64,000 bases of DNA from Clostridia bacterium (GTDB taxonomy: Bacteria > Bacillota > Clostridia > Christensenellales > CAG-138). Made by a program: the position numbers and the translations under genes. A model generated the notes under the pieces. The model worked only from the letters and a program-made list of their open reading frames with translations. It was not told where the DNA came from and ran no database searches. Positions 15,375-61,146 of the stretch are shown piece by piece (position 1 is the stretch's first letter; each line of letters starts with the position of its first letter). The stretch lies in the NCBI GenBank assembly GCA_017407205.1, contig JAFQXA010000034.1, forward strand, positions 35,584-99,583, written 5' to 3'.

Positions 15375-18300
15375 TCATATTCCGATTACTTTTTTCTGCA
15401 ATGCCGCAATATCTCTCGAATTAAGTTCCTTGTCGGTTCTCATATCACCGGCAATGGTTGTAATTTCATCTGCTTGTGCTGTTCCCAGAATTATCTTCTG
15501 TATAGCGGCTATATCTCTTGAATTTATTTTGCCATCACCCGTCAAGTCGCCAACAATCGCAACATCGAGCGTATCAACAACTTCTCCGTCTATAACAAGC
15601 CTTATTTGTGCACCTGTGCCTACAAGCGCATCACCCTCTGTAATCTTGTTGCCCAGATTATCATAGATTTCTATATTTTCGGGCTTATCAAATGCAGTTA
15701 TTATCTGTATCAGAGAAGTTTTTTCTTCAACACCCTTTAACTTTCCGTTTTCTGCCACATAAGTGCTTTCCGCTTTAAGTGTAAGTCCACTCGGAACAGG
15801 CAGCGTAGGTTCAGGTGTGGATGTAGCCTCCGCTGTGGGTGTAGGCGTTGGGGGTACGATGTCCGACTTATAGTCAGTTATTACCTCTGCACCCAATGTT
15901 CTGCGAATTGCGTAGTTACTTATTGCACGGAGCATTATTACTGTTATGCGGTCAAAGCATAAGCTTCCGTCCAAGCCGTTGACTTTCATCGCAGTCGGTG
16001 CTTGATTTGCGTGTGCCTTGACATATTTGGCATACGCTTTTCCGAGATAAAGATAATCGTCTTTGTCTATCACTTCATCTTCAAATGTGTCTTCACGCAC
16101 AGGGTTGATGGGATTGGTTACTTCGTACACCGTTATGGTTTCAGGCAAATCCTTGTAATCCGAATCCCAGGAAAGTTCTTTGAGCACTTCCGCCGCCATC
16201 TCTGCATAAGTTGCCTGCCTGAAGATATATTTTACTTCTTCACCGTTTTTGTTTGTAAACTCAACAGTCTTGCTTGATGGAATCTGTGCATACATATCCT
16301 TTTGATATGCTTCATAAAGTGATGCGCAGGCAGTTATTGCAAGCTTCATCGGAATTTCATACGATGTTCTTGCTGTTTCATAGTCTGCGGAAATGCTTTC
16401 GGGCAATATGCCTGTTTTTCTGAAGCTTCGCATGATTCTTGCAAGCACCAGAAGTTGGTGTGTGAAATTCATGCTTCCGCTGTACGGGAAACCTTCTGTT
16501 TCTTCAAACTCTACTGTCATAAGCGGTTGACGTCTTGAATACTTGTCAAGCTGTTCAAGCTGTTGTTCAACAAAATGAACATATCCTTCCTTGCCTATCA
16601 GGTTTTCAGCTTCGTTTACAACAAAGCTGTCAGAAGCCGTCCAAGTAAGCTCTGTGCAATCCTGTAATATTACCCTGTGAACAGCACCTGTATTTGAAAG
16701 CTCCGAAACTGCCTTTGCACAAACATCAAAAAACTGTGACATATTGAGCAATTCGTCTTTCAGGATTACGCTTTGGGGCAGAATGAAGTTTTCATCATAG
16801 TAGTCAATAAGACTCTTTGATGCAGAAATTATATCCTCGACCTCAGCATAAGTCTTTCTCTCCATTGCTATATCAATATTTTCGGGAAGCTCGCCATATT
16901 TTGCAAGGTATGAGAATATTCTCATAACAGTTATCAGTGTACGGTTGTAGTCCATCCTTCCGTTTATTCCGTAGCTGTGGTTTACCGCAATAAAGGGCGC
17001 GGGAACACACAGATACTCGTTTTCTTGTGTGAGTGTATTCATCTGTGCAAGCTGCCTTTTTACGACGTTTGAGTATGCCAACTTACTCATTGTGTCAGAA
17101 GACATTCTTGCTTCCTCCACGCCTTGAGGCTCTGTGCAAGTATAGTATGGAACATCATTTTCGTTTGCATCAAGAAGATTTGTGAGTGCTTCACAGGCAA
17201 CTCTGAAATATGATGCTTTATTTGCTGTAATTTCACCAAATGTAAGACTTTCGGGAACTGTACCTGTTTCTTCGTATTCTTTTCCTGCCTCCATCAAAAC
17301 AGCCGTTGCTTCGTCAAGCGTGAATACAGCTTCCGGCTCAGGTGTAACAATAGGTTCGACTATTTCTTCGTCCAAATAGCGCTTTGCCATTCTGAACTCA
17401 AACTTATTGCCATATGAGTCATAAAGGGAACTTTTATTACTTACAAAGTATATAGGCATTTCAGTTGAGGGCCAGATTTCCGAAATATCCTGTTTTGCCT
17501 TGAAAGTGATTTCCATGAGCCTGTCTATTTTATTGATGGGAACAGCAGCATCCGACCAAATGAATCGGAATTCCTTTGTGTCCTCATTATATACACTTTC
17601 CTTTACAGTGTCTGCACTTCTGTCATCAGGTAACTTAAAAGAAACAAGCTCTATAAATTCCGTGTTGATTCTTATCGAGAAATCCATCGCGCCTATTCTT
17701 CTCGCCTTAAAGCCGACGGGGGCACTTATAGTTACTTTAAATTCTTCGCCTGCTGATATGGAATGCTTATCCGCTGTAAGATTAAACGCATTTTCTGCAG
17801 CTGTGTAGTTATATGTAACGGTTTTGTTCTTCATGCCCTTTACCGCACGCTGGAATGCCAAAAGATCCAAAGCATTGATTTTTTTGTTTCGGTCAACATC
17901 AATTACATCCTTTGTTATTCCAATATGCTTTGTGCCGTTTAAAATCGCATCCGTTATAATGTCGGAGTCCGTTTCATTTCCGTAGCCATCCGCATTAACA
18001 TCACCGTTGACAAGCATTACGATTGAATCCAAAATCGTTTCTTCATTTTCTCGGCAAACACACCAACCTGTACGAACTATGCTTTGATTGTCAGTTATTC
18101 TGTTGCCTTTTTCGTCTGCAACATACAAATCACGGTTCACAAAGTTTTTCAAAAACGCTTCAATCGTTGTGCCGCCGGGTACATTTTTCAGATAGTCAGT
18201 TGAATAATCAAGAACATAGAAGCTTTCTTCACGAAGCTCTATCGCCACTCTTTCATTTCTCTTGTATGCAGTTGTTATGTATTCCGGCAGAACACCGTTA

Positions 18301-18875
18301 TTATAGTAGTAAGCGAGTGCCCACGAAAGTATACCGGCAACACGCGGTGCTGAAATATTACCTGAATATTCCGTTATTTTATCATTCGGATACGCAAGAT
18401 AATCAAACGCGCCACTTCCTGTTTCTGCATAATATGCCAAAACTTCATCTGCCATATCAAGGTACATTTCCTTTGATACCATGGGCGCTTTAAACGTATC
18501 ATCAGAATACTCACGGAAAGGCACAAACTCGTATGTAATCCTCATGTCAGTATTACCCTCGGACAGAGCTTTTAGTATTCTCGCTGCCAGCAAAGTATAT
18601 GACGGTGTATTGAAAACATACAGAGTTGAGCTGTCGCCTCTCATTGTAGCCCTGTCTGCAACTTCAGTATGGGTATAAAACCTGTTTCGAACAGCATTGA
18701 AACGCTGCAATGCAACCCCCATTGAAATATCGTCTTCAATAATAACGATATCGGGATTCCATTCATCATCAGGATCAGGATTTTGAGCAAAGCTCGGCAT
18801 AACCGCCATCAAAACGAAAGCTATCGCCAGAACGAAGGCTGTCAACTTTTTTATTGTTCTATTTAATGAATACAT
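15375..18875 (-). CDS. secreted scaffoldin-like protein: PMBR-like repeat modules, internal dockerin, cohesin-like domain, C-terminal dockerin
   Basis: Preferred start is ATG at comp. 18873-18875 (MYSLNRTIKKLTAFVLAIAFVLMAVMPSFAQ is a signal peptide) behind AGGAGAG. Dockerin Ca-loops: DVNADG...DVDRNKKINALDLLAFQRAV (~17835-18010) and GDLTGDGKINSRDIAAIQ...GDMRTDKELNSRDIAALQ (15375-15560). Cohesin-like beta-sandwich pattern at ~17400-17815. Repeated modules end in LPE[YNS]I. Confidence 0.75.
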   Translation of the reverse strand: MYSLNRTIKKLTAFVLAIAFVLMAVMPSFAQNPDPDDEWNPDIVIIEDDISMGVALQRFNAVRNRFYTHTEVADRATMRGDSSTLYVFNTPSYTLLAARILKALSEGNTDMRITYEFVPFREYSDDTFKAPMVSKEMYLDMADEVLAYYAETGSGAFDYLAYPNDKITEYSGNISAPRVAGILSWALAYYYNNGVLPEYITTAYKRNERVAIELREESFYVLDYSTDYLKNVPGGTTIEAFLKNFVNRDLYVADEKGNRITDNQSIVRTGWCVCRENEETILDSIVMLVNGDVNADGYGNETDSDIITDAILNGTKHIGITKDVIDVDRNKKINALDLLAFQRAVKGMKNKTVTYNYTAAENAFNLTADKHSISAGEEFKVTISAPVGFKARRIGAMDFSIRINTEFIELVSFKLPDDRSADTVKESVYNEDTKEFRFIWSDAAVPINKIDRLMEITFKAKQDISEIWPSTEMPIYFVSNKSSLYDSYGNKFEFRMAKRYLDEEIVEPIVTPEPEAVFTLDEATAVLMEAGKEYEETGTVPESLTFGEITANKASYFRVACEALTNLLDANENDVPYYTCTEPQGVEEARMSSDTMSKLAYSNVVKRQLAQMNTLTQENEYLCVPAPFIAVNHSYGINGRMDYNRTLITVMRIFSYLAKYGELPENIDIAMERKTYAEVEDIISASKSLIDYYDENFILPQSVILKDELLNMSQFFDVCAKAVSELSNTGAVHRVILQDCTELTWTASDSFVVNEAENLIGKEGYVHFVEQQLEQLDKYSRRQPLMTVEFEETEGFPYSGSMNFTHQLLVLARIMRSFRKTGILPESISADYETARTSYEIPMKLAITACASLYEAYQKDMYAQIPSSKTVEFTNKNGEEVKYIFRQATYAEMAAEVLKELSWDSDYKDLPETITVYEVTNPINPVREDTFEDEVIDKDDYLYLGKAYAKYVKAHANQAPTAMKVNGLDGSLCFDRITVIMLRAISNYAIRRTLGAEVITDYKSDIVPPTPTPTAEATSTPEPTLPVPSGLTLKAESTYVAENGKLKGVEEKTSLIQIITAFDKPENIEIYDNLGNKITEGDALVGTGAQIRLVIDGEVVDTLDVAIVGDLTGDGKINSRDIAAIQKIILGTAQADEITTIAGDMRTDKELNSRDIAALQKKVIGI

Positions 18876-18914
18876 TTTTAACTCTCCTGTTTGCAATTCT
18901 TAAACTCCAAGTTT

Positions 18915-22645: not shown

Positions 22646-24136
22646 ATGTTTTATAACAGCACGCGCAATGTTTCTCTCGTTTCAACGCCGTCAATGGCGG
22701 TTTTAAAAGGCATAGCAGATGACGGTGGATTGTATATTTTCAACGCTTATCCCACCATCGCTTCACTTGAAAGCTTAATGTCACTCGATACGCTTGAGCT
22801 TTATACAGAAATACTCTCTGCCCTCATTTGCGATATTCCAAAGGAAAAGATGGGAGAGCTTGTACGCAAAGCATATGTAGGCAAGTTTGAAACAGCTGAT
22901 TTGACTCCCCTTGTAAAAGTCGGTGAGGATTATGTTCTTGAGCTTTTCCGCGGTCCAACCTCCGCTTTTAAAGATGTTGCACTTTCAATGCTTCCGCATC
23001 TTGTCACAGCCTCCGCACAACTCAATGAAGTTAAGGATAACATCCATATTCTTACAGCAACAAGCGGTGACACAGGCAAAGCTGCAATGGCAGGTTTTGC
23101 AGATGTTGACGGCACGCGTATAACCGTATTCTTTCCCAAGGACGGTGTAAGCACGGTTCAGCAGGCACAAATGCTCACACAGGAAGGCTTTAATGTATGC
23201 GTTTGCTCCGTAAAGGGCAACTTTGACGACGCACAGACAGGCGTTAAGGAAATATTTAAAAGCGTAAAGGAAAATGCACTTTTGGAGGGTAAAAACATTC
23301 GTCTTTCAAGTGCAAACTCAATCAATATAGGTCGTCTTGCCCCACAGGTGGTTTACTACTTCAAGAGCTATTTTGACCTCGTAAAAAGCGGTGATATCAA
23401 GCTTTATGACAAGGTTGACTTTGTGGTTCCCACAGGCAATTTCGGCAACATACTTGCAGGCTACATTGCAAAGGGTTTGGGACTTCCTGTCGGCACTTTG
23501 GTTTGTGCAAGCAACGAAAACGATGTCTTGACCGAGTTCATCAACACAGGCAGATACGATAAAAAGCGTACATTCTTCAAAACAGCTTCACCGTCAATGG
23601 ACATCCTTGTTTCAAGCAATCTTGAACGCTTGCTCTATCTCATTTCGGGAAATGATGCTGAGAAGGTCGCTTCATATATGGCAGAGCTTGGCGAAAAAGG
23701 CGAATACACGGTTGATGCTTCAACGCTTCAAAAAATCAAGAAAGAGTTTTATGCCTGTGCTTGCTCCGATGAAGATGCATTTAAGACAATCAAGTCAACC
23801 TACGAAGAAAAAGGTTATCTTTTGGATACTCATACAGCAGTTGCAATGCATGTATGTGAAGACTATAAAAAGAACAATAAAGACCACAATACTTGCGTTG
23901 TTCTTTCAACCGCTTCACCTTACAAATTCGCGGCTGATGTACTCTTTGCGATAACAGGTGAAAAGGAAGAAAACGGTTTTGAAGCATTGAATAAGCTTGA
24001 AACACTCACGGGCGTTCCCATTCCCAAGAATCTTAAGGGACTTGATAAGAAGCCCATACTTCATAATTCATCAATCGAAAAAGAAGAAATGCTAAAATTC
24101 GTACTTGATTACAGCACAAAGGAATTGAGTAAATAA
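22646..24136 (+). CDS. thrC: threonine synthase (long form)
   Basis: 496 aa. ELFRGPTSAFKDVAL (PLP-Lys motif). Divergent from hom. Confidence 0.93.
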   Translation: MFYNSTRNVSLVSTPSMAVLKGIADDGGLYIFNAYPTIASLESLMSLDTLELYTEILSALICDIPKEKMGELVRKAYVGKFETADLTPLVKVGEDYVLELFRGPTSAFKDVALSMLPHLVTASAQLNEVKDNIHILTATSGDTGKAAMAGFADVDGTRITVFFPKDGVSTVQQAQMLTQEGFNVCVCSVKGNFDDAQTGVKEIFKSVKENALLEGKNIRLSSANSINIGRLAPQVVYYFKSYFDLVKSGDIKLYDKVDFVVPTGNFGNILAGYIAKGLGLPVGTLVCASNENDVLTEFINTGRYDKKRTFFKTASPSMDILVSSNLERLLYLISGNDAEKVASYMAELGEKGEYTVDASTLQKIKKEFYACACSDEDAFKTIKSTYEEKGYLLDTHTAVAMHVCEDYKKNNKDHNTCVVLSTASPYKFAADVLFAITGEKEENGFEALNKLETLTGVPIPKNLKGLDKKPILHNSSIEKEEMLKFVLDYSTKELSK

Positions 24137-24142
24137 GCAACA

Positions 24143-24170
24143 AAAAGCCCCTTGATCGGGGCTTTTACTT
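24143..24170. terminator. bidirectional terminator (thrC / small Cys-rich gene)
   Basis: AAAAGCCCC-ttgatc-GGGGCTTTT, with T/A runs on both sides. Confidence 0.75.
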
Positions 24171-24206
24171 TACCTGAAAGAGCTTTATCCTGAAGTATAA
24201 TTGCTC

Positions 24207-24425
24207 TTAGTTACAGCCACAGCCGCAACCGCAACCTGAGTTGTTTGAATTGCTCATACCACAGCCGCAGCCATTGTCACAGCCGAAGCAGCCGCTGCCG
24301 AAGAGCAAGATTATGATGATCCACCAAATGTTTCCGCAATCATCTTCACAACCGCAGCCTGAGTTACCGAGGAGCAAAAGGATGATGATCCACCACCATG
24401 AATTACCGTTACCAAAGTTGAACAT
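24207..24425 (-). CDS. 72-aa tandem hydrophobic/Cys-Gly-rich micro-protein (YjcZ-like tiny TM protein?)
   Basis: Perfect AAGGAGG RBS 8 nt upstream. Sequence is NSWWWIIILLLLGNSGCGCEDDCG, then NIWWIIIILLFGSGCFGCDNGCGCG, then ...SGCGCGCGCN. Confidence 0.6.
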   Translation of the reverse strand: MFNFGNGNSWWWIIILLLLGNSGCGCEDDCGNIWWIIIILLFGSGCFGCDNGCGCGMSNSNNSGCGCGCGCN

Positions 24426-24530
24426 GTTTATTTCCTCCTTGTTTTTTGCGCTTTCTGCGCTGTTCTACGATATATTACTCAGCTTCTTATGATTGTGTGC
24501 ATCGTTTTCTTGTGTTATAATTAAAAAGTT

Positions 24531-26674
<2,144 letters not shown>

Positions 26675-26677
26675 TAC

Positions 26678-27145
26678 ATGGAACACATATATGACAGCAT
26701 GACACTTGAAGATTTTGATATGCTTGGCAAAAAGCTTGCCGCTCTTTTAGACGGCGGTGGCTTCATTGCTTTCTTCGGTGACCTCGGTGCAGGCAAAACA
26801 ACGCTTGTAAAGCTCATTGCAAAGAACCTTGGAATCACGGAAATTGCGAGCCCGACTTTTACGGTCGTACGTGAACACGAAACTTCAGACAAAAAAGCCT
26901 TTTTCCACTTTGATGCATACCGTCTTGAAGATGAGGACGAATTGTCTGCAATAGGCTTTGATGATTATATCGAGCGTGCAAAGGACGGAATAATTGTCAT
27001 GGAATGGTCCGAAAACGTGTTGGGGCTTTTGCCCGATGACCGTTTGGACATTGCAATAACAGGAAGCGGTGACATGAAAAGAACCGTTAAGCTTTCAGCA
27101 TACGGAAAACATCACGAAAGCATATTGAGGGGGCTTTTAGCATGA
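26678..27145 (+). CDS. tsaE: tRNA t6A biosynthesis ATPase TsaE
   Basis: 155 aa. GDLGAGKTTLVK, HFDAYRL. Confidence 0.9.
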   Translation: MEHIYDSMTLEDFDMLGKKLAALLDGGGFIAFFGDLGAGKTTLVKLIAKNLGITEIASPTFTVVREHETSDKKAFFHFDAYRLEDEDELSAIGFDDYIERAKDGIIVMEWSENVLGLLPDDRLDIAITGSGDMKRTVKLSAYGKHHESILRGLLA

Positions 27146-27810
27146 TAGTTTTAGCCGTTTCGACCTCGCTTTCCGCTGCCTCCTGTGCAATTTTCGACAG
27201 CGAGCTTAACACTTTGAAAGAAAAGCAGTGTGCAGATAAGAAGACCTACTCCGAAACCCTTATGCCGACAGTATCTGCGCTTTTGGACGAGTGCAATATA
27301 ACCCCTGATAAAATAGACCTTGTTGCAGTCGATATAGGTCCCGGCTCATTCACAGGTGTGAGAATAGGCGTTGCATCATCAAACGCCCTTGCCTGCGCAC
27401 TCAGCAAAGAAATGATCGCTGTTTCGTCCCTTGAAGCTTTGGCATACCCCTTTATTTTTGACAATGCTCAGGTAGTTTCACTTCTTGATGCACGAAACGG
27501 AAACGGCTATGGTGCTGTTTACCAAAACAGCAAAGAAGCCGTGTCGCCTTCCGCCATAGTTATAAATTATTTTTTAGAAAGCATCGACTCTTCACTCGAT
27601 ACGCTTTTTGTAGGCGATGGCGCGAGAATTCACAAAAATCTCATCCTTGAAAAAATGCCGTCTGCACGTTTTTGTGAAGATGAGCAAATAAGCACGTCAC
27701 TTCTTGCAAGATATGCCTTTGAAAAGTATAAAAACGGCGAAGCGACAAACGAGGTTTTACCTCTGTATTTAAGACCGTCGCAGGCGGAGCGTTTGTATGG
27801 AAAAAGCTAA
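27142..27810 (+). CDS. tsaB: tRNA t6A biosynthesis protein TsaB
   Basis: 222 aa. DIGPGSFTGVRIGV. Overlaps tsaE. Confidence 0.88.
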   Translation: MIVLAVSTSLSAASCAIFDSELNTLKEKQCADKKTYSETLMPTVSALLDECNITPDKIDLVAVDIGPGSFTGVRIGVASSNALACALSKEMIAVSSLEALAYPFIFDNAQVVSLLDARNGNGYGAVYQNSKEAVSPSAIVINYFLESIDSSLDTLFVGDGARIHKNLILEKMPSARFCEDEQISTSLLARYAFEKYKNGEATNEVLPLYLRPSQAERLYGKS

Positions 27811-28282
27811 TTCTCCGATAATAATTCGTCCGATGCAGTCCTGCGATATAGACGGTGTGTTTGCACTTGAAAACGCCTGTTTCCGTTCCCCGTGGTCAAA
27901 GGAGTCACTTGCAGGCGAGCTAAAAAACAAGGTTGCACACTATCTCGTCATGCAATATGAAGATGAGCTTATAGGCTATGCCGGTATGTGGGTAATGTAT
28001 AACGAAGCACACATAACAAACATAGGCATATCCCCTGCTCACCGCTCAAAGGGGCTTGGTAAACGGCTCATGCTTGCCATAATGGAATATGCGTTGACTT
28101 TTTCTGCAAATGAAATGACACTTGAAGTACGGGAGTCAAACACAGTAGCACAGAACTTATACTTCTCTCTTGCGTTTGAATGTGCAGGAATAAGAAAGCA
28201 CTATTATTCCGACACTGATGAAGCAGCTATGATTCTTTGGAATCACGATATAGAAAAAACAGTAAAGGAGCATAAAAAATGA
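27797..28282 (+). CDS. rimI: ribosomal-protein-alanine N-acetyltransferase (GNAT)
   Basis: 161 aa. GISPAHRSKGLGKRLM acetyl-CoA motif. Conserved tsaE-tsaB-rimI order. Confidence 0.85.
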   Translation: MEKANSPIIIRPMQSCDIDGVFALENACFRSPWSKESLAGELKNKVAHYLVMQYEDELIGYAGMWVMYNEAHITNIGISPAHRSKGLGKRLMLAIMEYALTFSANEMTLEVRESNTVAQNLYFSLAFECAGIRKHYYSDTDEAAMILWNHDIEKTVKEHKK

Positions 28283-56075: not shown

Positions 56076-56113
56076 ACATAAAAGCGATACTCGGTTATAA
56101 ACCAAGTATCGCT
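56076..56113 (-). terminator. intrinsic terminator of the 512-aa PMBR-like gene
   Basis: Reverse strand: AGCGATACT-tggtttataaccg-AGTATCGCT, followed by TTTATGTTT. Confidence 0.65.
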
Positions 56114-56133: not shown

Positions 56134-57672
56134 TCACCACGCTGTAACTGAAATCTCATCCGGCAAGAAGCCGTTTGCAAAGTAGTAGTCTAAAGCCCTT
56201 GCAAAGAGATAAATCATATTATAGTGATTCATCGTGCCAAACTCAGTCGTGACATATGCAGGTACTGCATTATTTGTATAAACCGCTGTTGCAATTCTCT
56301 GCGCAAGCTTTATATAAGATGTCTTTGTAAATGTTACTTCTGTTATAGTTTCGCTTACTGCACTCTTTGGCGTTGCAATCTCCTTGAGTGGCATATTATT
56401 AGCCTTACCACGATTTATATTGCTTACGGTCGCCGCAAAAAGTCTGAGCATTGTGCCGATATACACTCTCGTGTTTTCAGCAAGAGTTACATACTTCGGC
56501 ATCTCATCAGTGCTTTCAATTGCAACAACAAGGCGACGTGCACCTTTCAAAATATCAACAAAGTTAAGATAAGTGTAATCAGGAGCTACACTGTCCTCGG
56601 GCGGTGTCGGCAAGCTTTCATGCCAAGGCTCCACAATAATGCTGTCAATCAAAATTCCGCTTGATGCATATCTTATGCAGATTTTAACAAAGGTTCTGAT
56701 AAGCGTTTCAGCGGACAACGCACCGACCGTTTGTGTATTTATAAAGCCTTTTACTGCACACTCAGGTGAGTTGTCAACATAGTTCAAAACTGACTGTGCA
56801 GTTTCTACATAATCCCAGCTTTCAAATATAACGCCCGTTATATTTTCGTATGATTTTTCTATGTAAGCCGCTTCGCTTCTCTCGATAATATCGTCAACAT
56901 AGCCGTTTGAGGCATCAACTATTATTTTTGAAACCAAAACCAAGAATTCAGGCATAAACACCTGCTCATTTTCAATCGTTACATACGGGGGACAAGCCTT
57001 ATTTTCTGCTATATATGTATTAACACTTTGGCAAGCCGCGAAAACGCTTGAAGTTTTGAATTCTACCGTTCCTACCTGTGGCGGTGCGGGCATGGGACTT
57101 TCCCAAGATGTCACTTCCACAGATTCGGGAAGTATGCTTGTCTGCCTGTAAAGTGAACCAACACGTGCAAAAGCTCCGATTATGCTGCTGAACGACATCG
57201 CACCAAGAGGTGTCTGTATATAGCCGGGTGCTTCTCCCTTTTTATTGATATAATCTACTGTATCATAAGCCAAGGCGAGATATTCTTGCTTTGTAAGCGT
57301 GCCTGACATCATCTTTTCATACTCAATTGACTTTTCACTTATGCTGTTTCTGAAAACATAAGTTGTGTTGCCTTTTTCTTCGTTTATGATGAATTCAGCC
57401 ATTATGCCGATAAACTCATTCATATAGATGTGATTACCGGCAATTGTCGCATACTTCGGCAACTCACCCGGATTATTGGTAATGTAAAGGTCAACGCCAT
57501 TTGCTGAATAGAGTACATCTTTATCCGGCAAACATTCTAAGTCGGCAGAAGCATGCCCACCATCGTAATATATATCGTTTTCTCCGTTATCGACTAATCG
57601 TGCAAAACTAAAACCCGAAAACACGCTGAACACAAAAGCCAAAGCCAAAACAAACGCGATAGTCTTTTTCAT
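56134..57672 (-). CDS. secreted protein made only of pseudomurein-binding-repeat-like modules
   Basis: Signal peptide MKKTIAFVLALAFVFSVFSGFSFA. Four modules end in ...LPESVEVTSW, ...LIDSIIVEPW and ...FLPDEISVTAW. Paralogous to 15375-18875 and 58784-60910. Confidence 0.65.
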   Translation of the reverse strand: MKKTIAFVLALAFVFSVFSGFSFARLVDNGENDIYYDGGHASADLECLPDKDVLYSANGVDLYITNNPGELPKYATIAGNHIYMNEFIGIMAEFIINEEKGNTTYVFRNSISEKSIEYEKMMSGTLTKQEYLALAYDTVDYINKKGEAPGYIQTPLGAMSFSSIIGAFARVGSLYRQTSILPESVEVTSWESPMPAPPQVGTVEFKTSSVFAACQSVNTYIAENKACPPYVTIENEQVFMPEFLVLVSKIIVDASNGYVDDIIERSEAAYIEKSYENITGVIFESWDYVETAQSVLNYVDNSPECAVKGFINTQTVGALSAETLIRTFVKICIRYASSGILIDSIIVEPWHESLPTPPEDSVAPDYTYLNFVDILKGARRLVVAIESTDEMPKYVTLAENTRVYIGTMLRLFAATVSNINRGKANNMPLKEIATPKSAVSETITEVTFTKTSYIKLAQRIATAVYTNNAVPAYVTTEFGTMNHYNMIYLFARALDYYFANGFLPDEISVTAW

Positions 57673-58698: not shown

Positions 58699-58727
58699 TC
58701 CCCCATCTCCCATATATAAAAAACAGC

Positions 58728-58758
58728 TAAGGCACGCACCATTATGGTGCGTGCCTTA
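58728..58758. terminator. strong bidirectional terminator
   Basis: TAAGGCACGCACC-attat-GGTGCGTGCCTTA. Confidence 0.8.
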
Positions 58759-58783
58759 ACATATTATACATTTTTAATTTGCA

Positions 58784-60910
58784 TTAGAACGGTAATGTGA
58801 TGTAGACGCCGCTGAGAACTCTTACCCTTGCAACTGACTGCGGAAGTGAAGTTCTCAAAGTATTACCGTTGTTTGAAAGGTCACCATGATACCACTTACC
58901 ATTGATGTAGCACTGTGCCCAAACGTGACCGTAACGACCGCCGGAGCTTGAAGTTACCTGACCATGATAGTATCTTGCAGGAACACCGGATGCTCTCCAA
59001 ACAGCTACCAACATATGTGCCAAGTCACAGCAGTTACCTTTACGCTTGTTCCATGTACCCAAAGCACCGAGCTTTGTGTTGTAGTAAACATACCAGTAAG
59101 ATGTCTTAGCCTGGAGGTAATTGAAGATGTTGAATGCCATCTTGTACTGCGTTGTAGCTGAGCCTCTTGCCGTCTTTGATACGGACTTGATTGTTGAGTT
59201 GTTCACCTGGCAGTTTGTTGTTGCCTTTGTATACTTCTCATAGCCTGACGGGCAAGCCTGAAGCTTTGAGCTGGAGCTTGAACTTGAACTTGAGCTGGAG
59301 CTTGATGCTGTTGCACCGAACTTGGAAACTGATACATAGTTGGGAAGATCGCCGTTGGTCTTGTGATAAGCAAGGATTCTTGCAAATGCGTAAATCAATG
59401 ACTTATAACCGACCTTTGATGTCTTATATGTGCAGTATGTAGGAGCTGTTTTTGAATTGGAATCCATGTAAGAAACAACTCTCTTTGCCATATCCTTGTA
59501 ATTTGACTTATAGATGGTCAATGTACCGGAGATACTGTCCGTGCTTGTTGACGGAGCCTTTGCGCCGACTGCCTTGTAAGTATTCGTTGTCTTGCCGTTT
59601 GTCAAATCATAAGTTGCTTTTGCAAAGATGTAAAGGGCGTTGGGCATTGAAACCTTTGTGCCATTGATTGTAACACTGCTGGGCAAAGCTTTCTTTGAAG
59701 CGATATGCGACTTAACAGTAGCTGCAGCGGACTTAACCTGTGCCATTGTGAATGTTGTTGCAGCCGGTGCTGTTGTCGGCTTTGTTGTGGGAGCCACAGT
59801 TGCTGTGGGAGCCTTAGTTGCAGTAGTGGTTGTTGAAGTTGTGAACTTCTTCCATGCCTGTACTGCTACATAGTTGGGAAGCGTATTGCTGTTTGCCTTG
59901 TAGTAAGCAAGGATTCTTGCAAATGCATAAACTACAACTGCATAGCAGAGCTCGCCGTTAGCTGTTGTTGATGCATAGTTGGGAGCCTGTGAATTTGTCG
60001 TAAAGAAGTTATAAACGTTGTCTGCAATCTTTACGTATGCAGCCTTCTGAATGTTACCCGCTTTTGTTGTGTCGAGAGCTACAGGTGATTCAGGAGCTTT
60101 CATTGCCTTTGAATAGATTGACAAAGAAGTTGAACCGTCATTAATGTTGCAGATAGCTGCTGCCATCATTCTCAAGAATGTGGGAGTTGCGGTTACGTAG
60201 CTGCCAATCTTCAAAGTTGCAGGAATAGCTTTCTTTGACTCGATTGTTTTCTTAAGAGTTGTTGCAGCTGTTGTGATCTGTGCCAATGTGAATGACATGC
60301 TGTTTGTTGTTGTAACAGCTGTTGTCGGAGTCGGAGTCTTTGTGGGAGCTACAGTTGCAGGAGCTGCAGTAGTGGTTGTTGCTGTGCCTGTAAATGTCTT
60401 CCACGGTGTCAAAGCAACCGTTGCAGGAAGTCTTGAATTTGTCTTGTAAAATACCAAAGCCTTTGCATACATATACATGAGGTTGCAGTAGTTAACCGTA
60501 ACTGAACCGATTGTTGCAAAGTTGGGCATTGTCTTGTTTGTTGCAACATAATCCAAAAGAACCTTTGTTTTTGCAGCATAATCTGCCAAAGCAATTGTAC
60601 CATTTACAGTATCAACTGCTGTCGGGTTTTCAGCTGCTGCAACTTCCGTTACGTCAAGAGCGTTCTTTGAGCCGTTTGCAAGATTGTCAACCTGCTTGAA
60701 CATCAAGAGTGTGAACTCAGAATGCTTCAATGTGTTTCCTGCTACCGTTACCGTAGCCGGTGTGTACTTGTTTTTCTCAATAAATGTCTGCACATTTGTT
60801 GCTGCAGTATAAAGATCGGCCGCTGTAACAGTTGTTGCAGCCAATGACACCATAGGTATTACGGAGAATACCATAATGAGTGCCAATACAAGGGATAAAG
60901 CTTTTTTCAT
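58784..60910 (-). CDS. secreted PMBR-like repeat protein with a C-terminal transglutaminase-like cysteine-protease core
   Basis: Signal peptide MKKALSLVLALIMVFSVIPMVSLA. Repeated modules (FTLAQITTAATTLKKTIESKKAIPATLKI; FARILAYYKANSNTLPNYVAV; FARILAYHKTNGDLPNYVSV) are separated by T/P/A linkers, followed by a poly-Ser run. Core is GNCCDLAHMLVAVWRASGVPARYYHG...GHVWAQCYINGKWYHGD (Cys-His-Asp), ~58784-59175. Confidence 0.75.
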   Translation of the reverse strand: MKKALSLVLALIMVFSVIPMVSLAATTVTAADLYTAATNVQTFIEKNKYTPATVTVAGNTLKHSEFTLLMFKQVDNLANGSKNALDVTEVAAAENPTAVDTVNGTIALADYAAKTKVLLDYVATNKTMPNFATIGSVTVNYCNLMYMYAKALVFYKTNSRLPATVALTPWKTFTGTATTTTAAPATVAPTKTPTPTTAVTTTNSMSFTLAQITTAATTLKKTIESKKAIPATLKIGSYVTATPTFLRMMAAAICNINDGSTSLSIYSKAMKAPESPVALDTTKAGNIQKAAYVKIADNVYNFFTTNSQAPNYASTTANGELCYAVVVYAFARILAYYKANSNTLPNYVAVQAWKKFTTSTTTTATKAPTATVAPTTKPTTAPAATTFTMAQVKSAAATVKSHIASKKALPSSVTINGTKVSMPNALYIFAKATYDLTNGKTTNTYKAVGAKAPSTSTDSISGTLTIYKSNYKDMAKRVVSYMDSNSKTAPTYCTYKTSKVGYKSLIYAFARILAYHKTNGDLPNYVSVSKFGATASSSSSSSSSSSSSKLQACPSGYEKYTKATTNCQVNNSTIKSVSKTARGSATTQYKMAFNIFNYLQAKTSYWYVYYNTKLGALGTWNKRKGNCCDLAHMLVAVWRASGVPARYYHGQVTSSSGGRYGHVWAQCYINGKWYHGDLSNNGNTLRTSLPQSVARVRVLSGVYITLPF
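59267..59305 (-). repeat. 13-codon poly-Ser tract built from a near-palindromic DNA repeat
   Basis: tgagctggagcttga-acttgaact-tgagctggagcttga. Encodes S13 between the last repeat module and the catalytic domain. Confidence 0.8.
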
Positions 60911-61146
60911 TTTTTATTACCTCCTTTGGGGGGATTTTATTTGGAAAGCAGTAAAGCAAGCCTTTTTTTGCTGAAGCATTGCTATTCTCTTCCTCTTGGA
61001 GTTATTATACCATTTTTTACTTATTTAATGATATATATTTTTTCGTTTTCTTAATATCAATTGCTTATCATTTAAGTTTTTTTGAAAGATTTACCATAAG
61101 TAAAAATTATATTAACCTCTTGTTTGATAAAAAAAATAATATCCAT

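Follow-up and report, generated by a model that had tools for sequence, protein, structure and literature searches.

A predicted secreted peptidase with pseudomurein-binding modules and a transglutaminase-like core in a gut Clostridia genome

The window analyzed here is a stretch of 64,000 nucleotides from the metagenome-assembled genome (MAG) of a Clostridia bacterium (GenBank assembly GCA_017407205.1, contig JAFQXA010000034.1, positions 35,584 to 99,583). At 58784..60910 on its minus strand, the strand of every feature of the window given below, lies a gene for a 708-residue protein that joins a predicted signal peptide, three pseudomurein-binding (PMB) modules, and a C-terminal transglutaminase-like cysteine peptidase core. 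Sequence comparison of this protein with its relatives suggests that there may be gut bacteria able to hold on to methanogen walls and cut them. The open reading frame (ORF), taken from an ORF list and verified by translation (stop codon at 58784-58786), reproduces exactly the position, strand and length given in a preliminary description of this DNA. A ribosome-binding site, AGGAGG, is found at 60920..60925, 9 nt before the ATG (upstream sequence ...CCAAAGGAGGTAATAAAAA-ATG), and directly past the stop codon a terminator scan finds an intrinsic terminator at 58726..58760 (a 16-bp stem with 9 G-C pairs, and a T-run). Because it has its own ribosome-binding site and a strong terminator, the gene looks like a self-contained transcription unit. 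Its GC content is 43.9%, versus 41.3% for the window. Residues 1-24 (60839..60910) are a predicted Sec-type signal peptide, as described before: the N-terminus, MKKALSLVLALIMVFSVIPMVSLA with cleavage before ATT, has by its sequence the n/h/c layout of such peptides (MKK, a hydrophobic core, and SLA ahead of the next Ala), without a lipobox cysteine, and bacterial homologues appear to have the same type of N-terminus. The mature peptidase is basic, with an isoelectric point (pI) of 9.8.

A Pfam scan of the full protein finds PMBR (PF09373) in five stretches with an E-value of 5.9e-32, its 108.7 bits well over the gathering score of 24.9, and Transglut_core (PF01841) at residues 578-677 (E = 6e-18, 65.5 bits against a cut-off of 23). 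A scan against NCBIfam gives zero matches. LysM, SH3b, PG_binding_1, SLH, CW_binding and CWB2 are all absent from Pfam and NCBIfam results at E <= 1, and the domain scan and inspection of the sequence reveal no dockerin, LPXTG motif, SLH domain or transmembrane segment. Self-comparison and a module hidden Markov model (HMM) divide the N-terminal part into three modules of about 146 residues each: module 1 at residues 28-172 (60395..60829, pI 8.6, HMM E-value 5.5e-69), module 2 at 206-355 (59846..60295, pI 9.6, 2.4e-69), and module 3 at 387-532 (59315..59752, pI 9.9, 1.6e-66). The HMM was trained on these same three modules, and its scores of about 1e-66 to 1e-69 are not independent. Taken alone, the C-terminal halves of the modules match PMBR at 3e-06 (27.5 bits), 3.9e-09 (36.6 bits, two stretches) and 3.1e-17 (62.2 bits, two stretches), in order, while the first halves, which carry the "ftlaqi" sub-repeat, lack any PMBR match even at E <= 10. 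The first halves are counted as PMB because whole modules align with the complete PMB domain of ORF35 from Methanobacterium virus Drs3, a protein treated below. That domain aligns to module 1 at E = 5e-12 and to module 2 at E = 7e-15, and module 3 falls within an end-to-end alignment to ORF35. The likeness to PMB repeats noted in the preliminary description stands for the protein as a whole, but the "ftlaqi" half that it named has no PMBR match of its own.

At least three PMB motifs are the minimum for binding according to work on MTH719, as that work is cited in PMC2989375. The peptidase has five by Pfam, and each of its three complete modules aligns to the ORF35 PMB domain. Its module pI values of 8.6-9.9 compare with 9.6-9.8 for the PMB domains of PeiW and PeiP, the Cys-dependent, metal-activated isopeptidases that cleave Ala-epsilon-Lys bonds (PMC4592898). 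An AlphaFold model spanning residues 396-708, built from 127 sequences, has a mean predicted local distance difference test score (pLDDT) of 90.4, and renders module 3 as helix/short-strand repeats with pLDDT about 88-98. By their composition, linker 1 (residues 173-205, 60296..60394) and linker 2 (residues 356-386, 59753..59845) are rich in Thr, Pro and Ala, and linker 3 (residues 533-555, 59246..59314) is poly-Ser, and is disordered in the model (pLDDT <50 at model residues 139-151). Linker 3 holds a run of 15 Ser, and linkers 1 and 2 are nearly pure Thr/Pro/Ala; the three recall the glycosylated linkers of secreted Gram-positive glycoside hydrolases.

The catalytic core occupies residues 556-708 (58787..59245) and ends in the family's LPF. 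Isolated, this domain of 153 residues matches Transglut_core at 2.3e-19 (70.1 bits). The predicted nucleophile, Cys627 in GNCCD (codon 59030..59032), aligns to the cysteines of PeiW, PeiP and the protein of known structure 3isr; His662 in GHVW (58925..58927) aligns to the histidine of PeiW and PeiP, with equal Cys-His spacing; and Asp677 in WYHGD (58880..58882) would complete the triad. All three residues are invariant across 127 aligned family members, and in 23 of 23 bacterial, 39 of 39 archaeal, and 4 of 4 viral catalytic domains. C567, D629, H632 and H649 are likewise conserved in the bacterial, archaeal and viral sets, with C567 missing from one viral sequence. A Transglut_core match over its gathering score together with conserved Cys, His and Asp assigns the protein to the transglutaminase-like superfamily, and the residues picked out beforehand for a triad (GNCCD, GHVW, YHGD) exist and are conserved.

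The relationship to the Pei enzymes is one of architecture and fold rather than of peptidase family. Peptidase_C71 (PF12386, gathering score 22 bits) has no match in the full protein at E <= 1 or in the catalytic domain at E <= 10, while PeiW and PeiP, their sequences taken from phage records, scored 295.9 and 318.5 bits (6e-89 and 6e-96) in the same run, with PMBR matching four times in each. We therefore reject membership in C71. Of the hmmscan runs first suggested for the core, the one with PF01841 gave the significant match already mentioned and the one with C71 gave none. BLASTP connects the PMB repeats to those of PeiW and PeiP at 1e-5, and the catalytic part over a 37-residue Cys-to-His stretch with 30% identity and the same spacing; hhalign aligns the catalytic domain to PeiW with 93.7% probability, Cys and His included. 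A profile of 45 sequences from the catalytic subfamily, searched against the PDB, matches 3isr at 1.5e-18, PeiP (8z4f) at 2.5e-7 and PeiW (8jx4) at 2.6e-7. The first of these, a putative cysteine protease of Cytophaga hutchinsonii, is thus the nearest solved catalytic domain by sequence profile; it differs from the peptidase in having no PMB modules and another N-terminal domain, and is uncharacterised.

Foldseek orders the PDB matches to the AlphaFold model otherwise. Full-length PeiP comes first (E = 4.3e-9, 326 columns, both domains aligned). Next is 3isr, with a root-mean-square deviation (rmsd) of 3.3-3.8 across some 155 residues, and third is the catalytic domain of PeiW (TM 0.64, rmsd 3.4-3.5 A, about 19% identity). 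Among predicted viral structures PeiP again ranks first, at 4.8e-9. The Pei-like architecture proposed in the preliminary description is borne out by this best structural match. By sequence and by model, the peptidase is Pei-like in architecture and predicted fold and belongs to the same superfamily, and since PF12386 has no match, we place it in a sister subfamily to C71. It shares with PeiP and PeiW an N-terminal PMB region, a C-terminal core, predicted to be of clan CA, in which Cys and His align, and a basic pI. They differ in being leaderless phage lysins with one four-motif PMB domain, whereas the peptidase is secreted and has three such domains. In PeiW, deletion of the PMB domain abolishes binding, and deletion of the catalytic domain abolishes lysis (PMC2989375).

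The host is a bacterium, as had been supposed: the window encodes UvrA, UvrB, NAD-dependent LigA, PcrA, Ffh and VanW. The earlier "gut or rumen Clostridium" was roughly right; the source is a MAG of the class Clostridia, and its nearest relatives are Oscillospiraceae and Faecousia of animal guts. An identical 708-residue protein is present on 8 metagenome contigs, where MreB, Maf, GlgP (glycogen phosphorylase) and rubrerythrin surround the gene, and record names suggest that these contigs come from a ruminant-gut catalogue. Unlike the Pei lysins, the gene sits in a bacterial chromosome, with its own signal peptide, and not in a virus or provirus. No phage genes were found near it, the flanks being housekeeping genes, and an origin as part of a prophage or mobile element in this window is rejected. 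We also reject the idea that the gene shares an operon or a function with the response regulator, which lies between it and its neighbor, or with the NTP-transferase gene. Conservation of these neighbors stops at the sister species (L007) and does not extend to the loci of Faecousia and other Oscillospiraceae; they thus do not point to a partner in an operon.

Relatives were collected with a catalytic-domain profile searched against 1.84 billion representative proteins at a threshold of E <= 1e-30. The search returned 340 representative clusters, with the domain at the extreme C-terminus in every match listed. (This profile search and alignment-seeded searches replaced an earlier word-indexed homology search, which under-performed because of the low-complexity linkers, giving eight matches with the full protein and one with the catalytic domain.) Among the 74 best catalytic relatives, Pfam finds Transglut_core in 74, PMBR in 53, and a cross-match to Peptidase_C71 in 22 (best 5.5e-10); the remaining domains are DUF4015, GHL10, GH18 and Ig-like, with PG_binding_1 in a single protein. 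The peptidase carries the signature of the subfamily, a PMB module directly before a C-terminal domain of the form TxNCQ ... GNC[CV]D ... GHV ... D ... LPF, yet its producer is a bacterium, unlike the usual producers, which are pseudomurein-walled or, for viruses, have pseudomurein-walled hosts. Methanobacterium and Methanobrevibacter account for almost every source named in the alignment-seeded protein search, which also brought up one Omnitrophica bacterium, and assignment by nearest labelled neighbor makes 135 of 148 representative clusters archaeal-like and 13 bacterial-like. To judge from these sequences, the family is overwhelmingly one of Methanobacteriales. A scan of one genome per GTDB species, using two family-specific peptide patterns, finds 50 loci; about half are in Methanobrevibacter, Methanobacterium and other Methanobacteriota, and the other half in Oscillospiraceae, Faecousia, and "Clostridia bacterium" MAGs from animal guts, plus one Rifleibacterium.

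The phylogeny called for in the preliminary description, of the catalytic core against the Pei enzymes, was built by neighbor-joining (NJ), with PeiW and PeiP as root and 200 bootstraps. The 22 sequences from Oscillospirales fall together in a single clade (68% of bootstraps, with or without the viral sequences) inside a paraphyletic archaeal grade. The archaeal neighbors closest to this clade come from the genome of an uncultured member of the Methanobacteriaceae and share 50-52% identity with the peptidase. GC content of the gene tracks that of the host contig, at 44-59% in bacteria and 24-44% in archaea, which argues against both mis-binning and recent transfer. A mis-binned archaeal contig or a very recent transfer is accordingly rejected, the bacterial hallmark genes of the window standing against it too. 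Bacterial copies are uniform across genera, with signal peptide, two or three modules, and catalytic domain, while archaeal copies mostly have no or one module and other N-terminal domains, a count made with the module HMM and so biased to the query. The second Cys of GNCCD (Cys628, codon 59027..59029) is found in 23 of 23 bacterial and 4 of 4 viral sequences but in only 10 of 39 from cellular archaea, the rest having Val. This pattern hints that the bacterial clade may have descended from a virus-like lineage of the family. The simplest reading of these sequence data would be a single old transfer, from Methanobacteriales or their viruses to an ancestor of Oscillospirales, after which both the binding module and the gene were duplicated. 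If so, it would clearly exemplify how a module that targets a wall can pass from archaea or viruses to a bacterium that does not itself have the substrate.

Such a transfer could in principle have left a decaying or repurposed relic without a role at any wall, such as a secreted protease or a binding protein of a generic kind. The databases, which name the bacterial homologues only "transglutaminase domain-containing" or "hypothetical", would fit this. We regard it as highly improbable. The ORF, ribosome-binding site and terminator are intact; the catalytic residues are invariant in 23 bacterial copies, although these are only about 40-47% identical beyond the closest relatives of the query; the layout of signal peptide, two or three modules and catalytic domain is conserved across genera; and the structural model is a confident one.

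Among relatives whose genetic context is defined, the closest that can be characterised are encoded by viruses. The catalytic domain was searched by tblastn against 50,697 phage records and found a full-length match twice, each time in a record of Methanobacterium virus Drs3 (E = 2e-27, with 43.8% identity across 99% of the domain); the others were weak partial matches to an Acinetobacter phage. Drs3 is an isolated lytic virus of M. formicicum. Its ORF35 product (AXN53416.1, 300 residues, annotated "pseudomurein-binding repeat protein") matches PMBR at 2.7e-17, Transglut_core at 5.6e-14, and C71 at 20.7 bits, just below the cut-off, and aligns end to end with residues 388-708 of the peptidase (33% identity over 323 columns, E = 5e-45). 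The two share one unit of PMB module, linker and Transglut_core ending in LPF, with the GNCCD, GH and D residues; ORF35 differs in being viral, with no signal peptide and one module, while the peptidase is chromosomal, with a Sec leader and three modules. The terminase-portal-capsid-tail operon of Drs3 ends with ORF35, in the place that peiP takes in psiM2, and the Drs3 annotation contains no lysin other than this candidate. Elsewhere in Drs3, the 1403-residue, tape-measure-like ORF31 product annotated "prominin" (23909..28120) gives a 109-residue structural match to the query model (26% identity, rmsd 3.1), so that a PMB-like or peptidase-like domain may, going by the model, occur in the virion tail as well.

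A second viral homologue lies on IMGVR_UViG_3300029775_000401 (locus L057, 7683..8444), and is 44% identical to the catalytic domain of the peptidase. It sits where a lysis cassette would be, following Dit/tail genes and a small ORF and preceding an integrase; it matches endolysin PHROGs, and joins PG_binding_1 to the same Transglut_core subfamily. In the tree its catalytic domain falls among sequences of Methanobacterium, and of the phages Drs3 is the one it matches best, which makes a methanogen the probable host. The supposed murein-binding domain may thus be used on pseudomurein, unless the host is no methanogen after all. For the same two reasons we rejected this PG_binding_1 lysin as evidence of a murein target. 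A third comparison is PeiR, from the provirus phi-mru of Methanobrevibacter ruminantium, which combines a PMBR block with a clan-CA cysteine peptidase and is active on rumen methanogens (PMC6189367). PeiR differs from the peptidase in having a Peptidase_C39 catalytic domain and two divergent PMBRs only, and in being virus-encoded. Since it is active with a C39 domain, it shows that the architecture, not the exact peptidase family, makes a pseudomurein lysin.

Several observations would also suit a bacterial target, that is, PMB-like modules binding the producer's own wall, or other bacterial murein or secondary wall polymer, in an autolytic, remodelling or anti-bacterial role. PMBR motifs are listed in aerobic Proteobacteria, which do not encounter methanogens at all (PMC3210951). 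Lactococcal spheroplasts that had been treated with lysozyme were bound by PMB domains, with N-acetylglucosamine perhaps as the ligand (PMC3466432). The catalytic profile lies nearer to 3isr than to Pei, one viral homologue pairs the core with PG_binding_1, and the gene has been long kept, duplicated, and matched in GC to its host. We nevertheless find such a target improbable. The work that reported binding of PMB domains to spheroplasts saw none to chitin or to murein that was intact (PMC3466432). PMBR occurs in 53 of the 74 nearest catalytic relatives and a murein-binding domain in one of them, and the virus with PG_binding_1 groups with Methanobacterium and has Drs3 as its best phage match. 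The family is otherwise almost confined to organisms with pseudomurein and their viruses, the peptidase has no recognised murein-binding module, and a protein encoded in the same window with both a dockerin and PMB modules would have no need of PMB as a self-anchor. The idea raised at the outset as an alternative, that the repeats bind the producer's own wall, is thereby weakened.

The protein with the dockerin is one of two further PMB proteins in the window. Encoded at 15375..18896, it has 1173 residues with an N-terminal signal/anchor sequence, PMBR (8.6e-08), a cohesin-like domain (Cohesin at 1.6e-4, 22.3 bits, just below the cut-off), an internal dockerin-like repeat, and a C-terminal type I dockerin (Dockerin_1 at 3.5e-14). 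One of its modules is significant (module HMM 2.5e-05), and there are up to four if weak ones are included. As a cellulosome-style adaptor with PMB modules, it could tether methanogens to a complex on the bacterial surface. Its presence suggests that PMB may serve as a cargo or targeting module rather than as a self-anchor. The second protein, encoded at 56134..57672, is a secreted paralogue of 512 residues with a signal peptide, three PMB modules (PMBR 4.9e-14), and no catalytic domain. It is acidic (pI 4.6, versus 9.8 for the basic peptidase), shows three module-HMM matches of 4.6e-16 to 4.7e-24 and a BLASTP match to the peptidase at 4.5e-25, and has its own strong terminator at 56113..56083; at NCBI it is MBQ2662318.1, a hypothetical protein from a "Clostridia bacterium" MAG. 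The peptidase, the PMB-only protein and the PMB-dockerin protein may together form a toolkit for the capture of methanogens.

This gene content would also fit an attachment factor, in which the PMB array or a cohesin-dockerin complex glues a hydrogen-producing bacterium to methanogens for interspecies hydrogen transfer, and the transglutaminase-like domain trims the wall locally, or fixes the contact covalently as a true transglutaminase. The same 64-kb window encodes both the secreted PMB-only protein and the one with cohesin-like and dockerin domains. Bacterial genomes often hold several paralogues, commonly in tandem (tandem or near-tandem sets occur in bacterial and archaeal genomes alike, at loci L008, L011, L016, L010, L015, L027, L032, L036, L037, L045 and L052, the largest having up to three copies at the Methanobacterium locus L027). 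The archaeal homologues, moreover, are classed as adhesin-like (PMC11532034). These are the Group III TG-type adhesin-like proteins, described for M. smithii and M. stadtmanae (PMC11532034), and other PMBR-transglutaminase proteins of Methanobacteriales, which share the catalytic subfamily, are 40-52% identical to the peptidase, and likewise carry a C-terminal catalytic domain beside a PMB module. They differ in usually having no or one module, Ig-like, DUF4015 or GH-like domains, and a membrane anchor (PMC11532034), and in that they would act on, or be lodged in, the pseudomurein of the very cell that makes them. We hold attachment to be rather unlikely as the main role of the peptidase. The nearest relatives that can be characterised from a defined genetic setting are viral and occupy lysis positions; having no dockerin, LPXTG, SLH or transmembrane anchor, it would leave its producer untethered once secreted; and strict conservation of the triad in all copies indicates that catalysis matters.

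We lean instead, with limited assurance, toward the view that the peptidase is a secreted enzyme that uses its PMB array to grip the pseudomurein of neighboring methanogens and cuts the peptide cross-links from outside. The basic, modular protein would be exported through the Sec pathway from a gut Clostridia/Oscillospirales cell, and its triple PMB array would attach with high avidity to the pseudomurein of Methanobrevibacter- or Methanobacterium-type neighbors. The flexible Ser/Thr linkers would give the catalytic domain reach to the peptide cross-links, where Cys627 would attack the (iso)peptide bond, as PeiW and PeiP do at Ala-epsilon-Lys. The outcome would be a methanogen wall weakened or lysed, and with it antagonism, release of nutrients, or local remodelling for tight contact. 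A narrower version, tentative and in our view rather more doubtful than probable, is that Oscillospirales have made an "exolysin", capturing a virus lysin unit or methanogen autolysin and adding a secretion signal and a tripled PMB region, with which they kill or open methanogens. If that were true, it would be the first described bacterial enzyme weapon against an archaeal cell wall.

A number of points weigh against a pseudomurein-cutting enzyme, and they are of different kinds. On the catalytic side, PF12386 does not match and the subfamily profile is nearer to an uncharacterised bacterial protein than to Pei, as described; also, the alignments, which are gapped in this region, put Asp677 some 3 residues away from the Asp of Pei. 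On the binding side, PMBR in Proteobacteria (PMC3210951) and binding to spheroplasts (PMC3466432) mean that the modules may not be specific for pseudomurein. The presence of several paralogues in a genome, and of catalytically empty PMB proteins, would also suit an adhesive or structural role. That ORF35 is the lysin of Drs3 we infer from gene position and domains only. The genome scan used only two peptide patterns, which makes the taxonomic picture incomplete, and the backbone of the NJ trees is poorly supported. Finally, methanogen transglutaminases have been proposed to cross-link or recycle pseudomurein (PMC2812497, PMC10117817), and with archaeal homologues that are adhesin-like (PMC11532034) or candidates for cross-linking, the ancestral activity may not be hydrolytic.

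Bacterial pseudomurein-binding peptidases were not found in the literature on Pei, PMB, pseudomurein biosynthesis, adhesin-like proteins, archaeal viruses, or antagonism between archaea and bacteria. To our knowledge, verified pseudomurein-degrading enzymes come only from three methanogen proviruses. A 2012 paper stated that there were no experimental reports of bacterial PMB domains (PMC3466432), and lysozyme and the remaining known bacterial wall hydrolases are described as having no effect on pseudomurein (PMC2989375, PMC6189367). The action of a PMB domain with a clan-CA peptidase on pseudomurein is already known; the novelty would seem to lie in a form that is bacterial and secreted and has three PMB domains, and in the transfer that such a form implies. 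Molecular antagonism between bacteria and archaea is barely documented. Archaeal peptidoglycan hydrolases kill bacteria (PLoS Biol 2025, PMC12352652), a report that covers archaea killing bacteria and not the converse. They form a mirror image of the peptidase, each being a secreted wall hydrolase for a substrate that its own producer lacks and that only the opposite domain of life possesses, but they act in the direction from archaea to bacteria, belong to another enzyme family, and are reported rather than, as here, predicted. A secreted bacterial enzyme that grips and cuts pseudomurein would, if real, open a direct way to study how fermenters of the rumen and gut keep hydrogen-consuming methanogens in check or couple with them, and would be a candidate for anti-methanogen (methane-mitigation) enzymes, protoplasting, or reagents for fluorescence in situ hybridization.

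The same catalytic subfamily appears twice more in bacteria, each time in another phylum: in Candidatus Rifleibacterium (L054, 6853..7759) and in a Candidatus Omnitrophica bacterium (P0027), in proteins of about 270-300 residues. The Rifleibacterium copy has a signal peptide, and a PMB module is detectable in neither copy. They may go back to separate transfers. Query-like PMB modules are also found in other company: fused to DJ-1/PfpI plus a BPL_N-type domain in one protein (P0007), and in another (P0008) to DUF4015 and a C-terminal region that by eye resembles a C39 peptidase. These fusions suggest a wider set of pseudomurein-directed enzymes.

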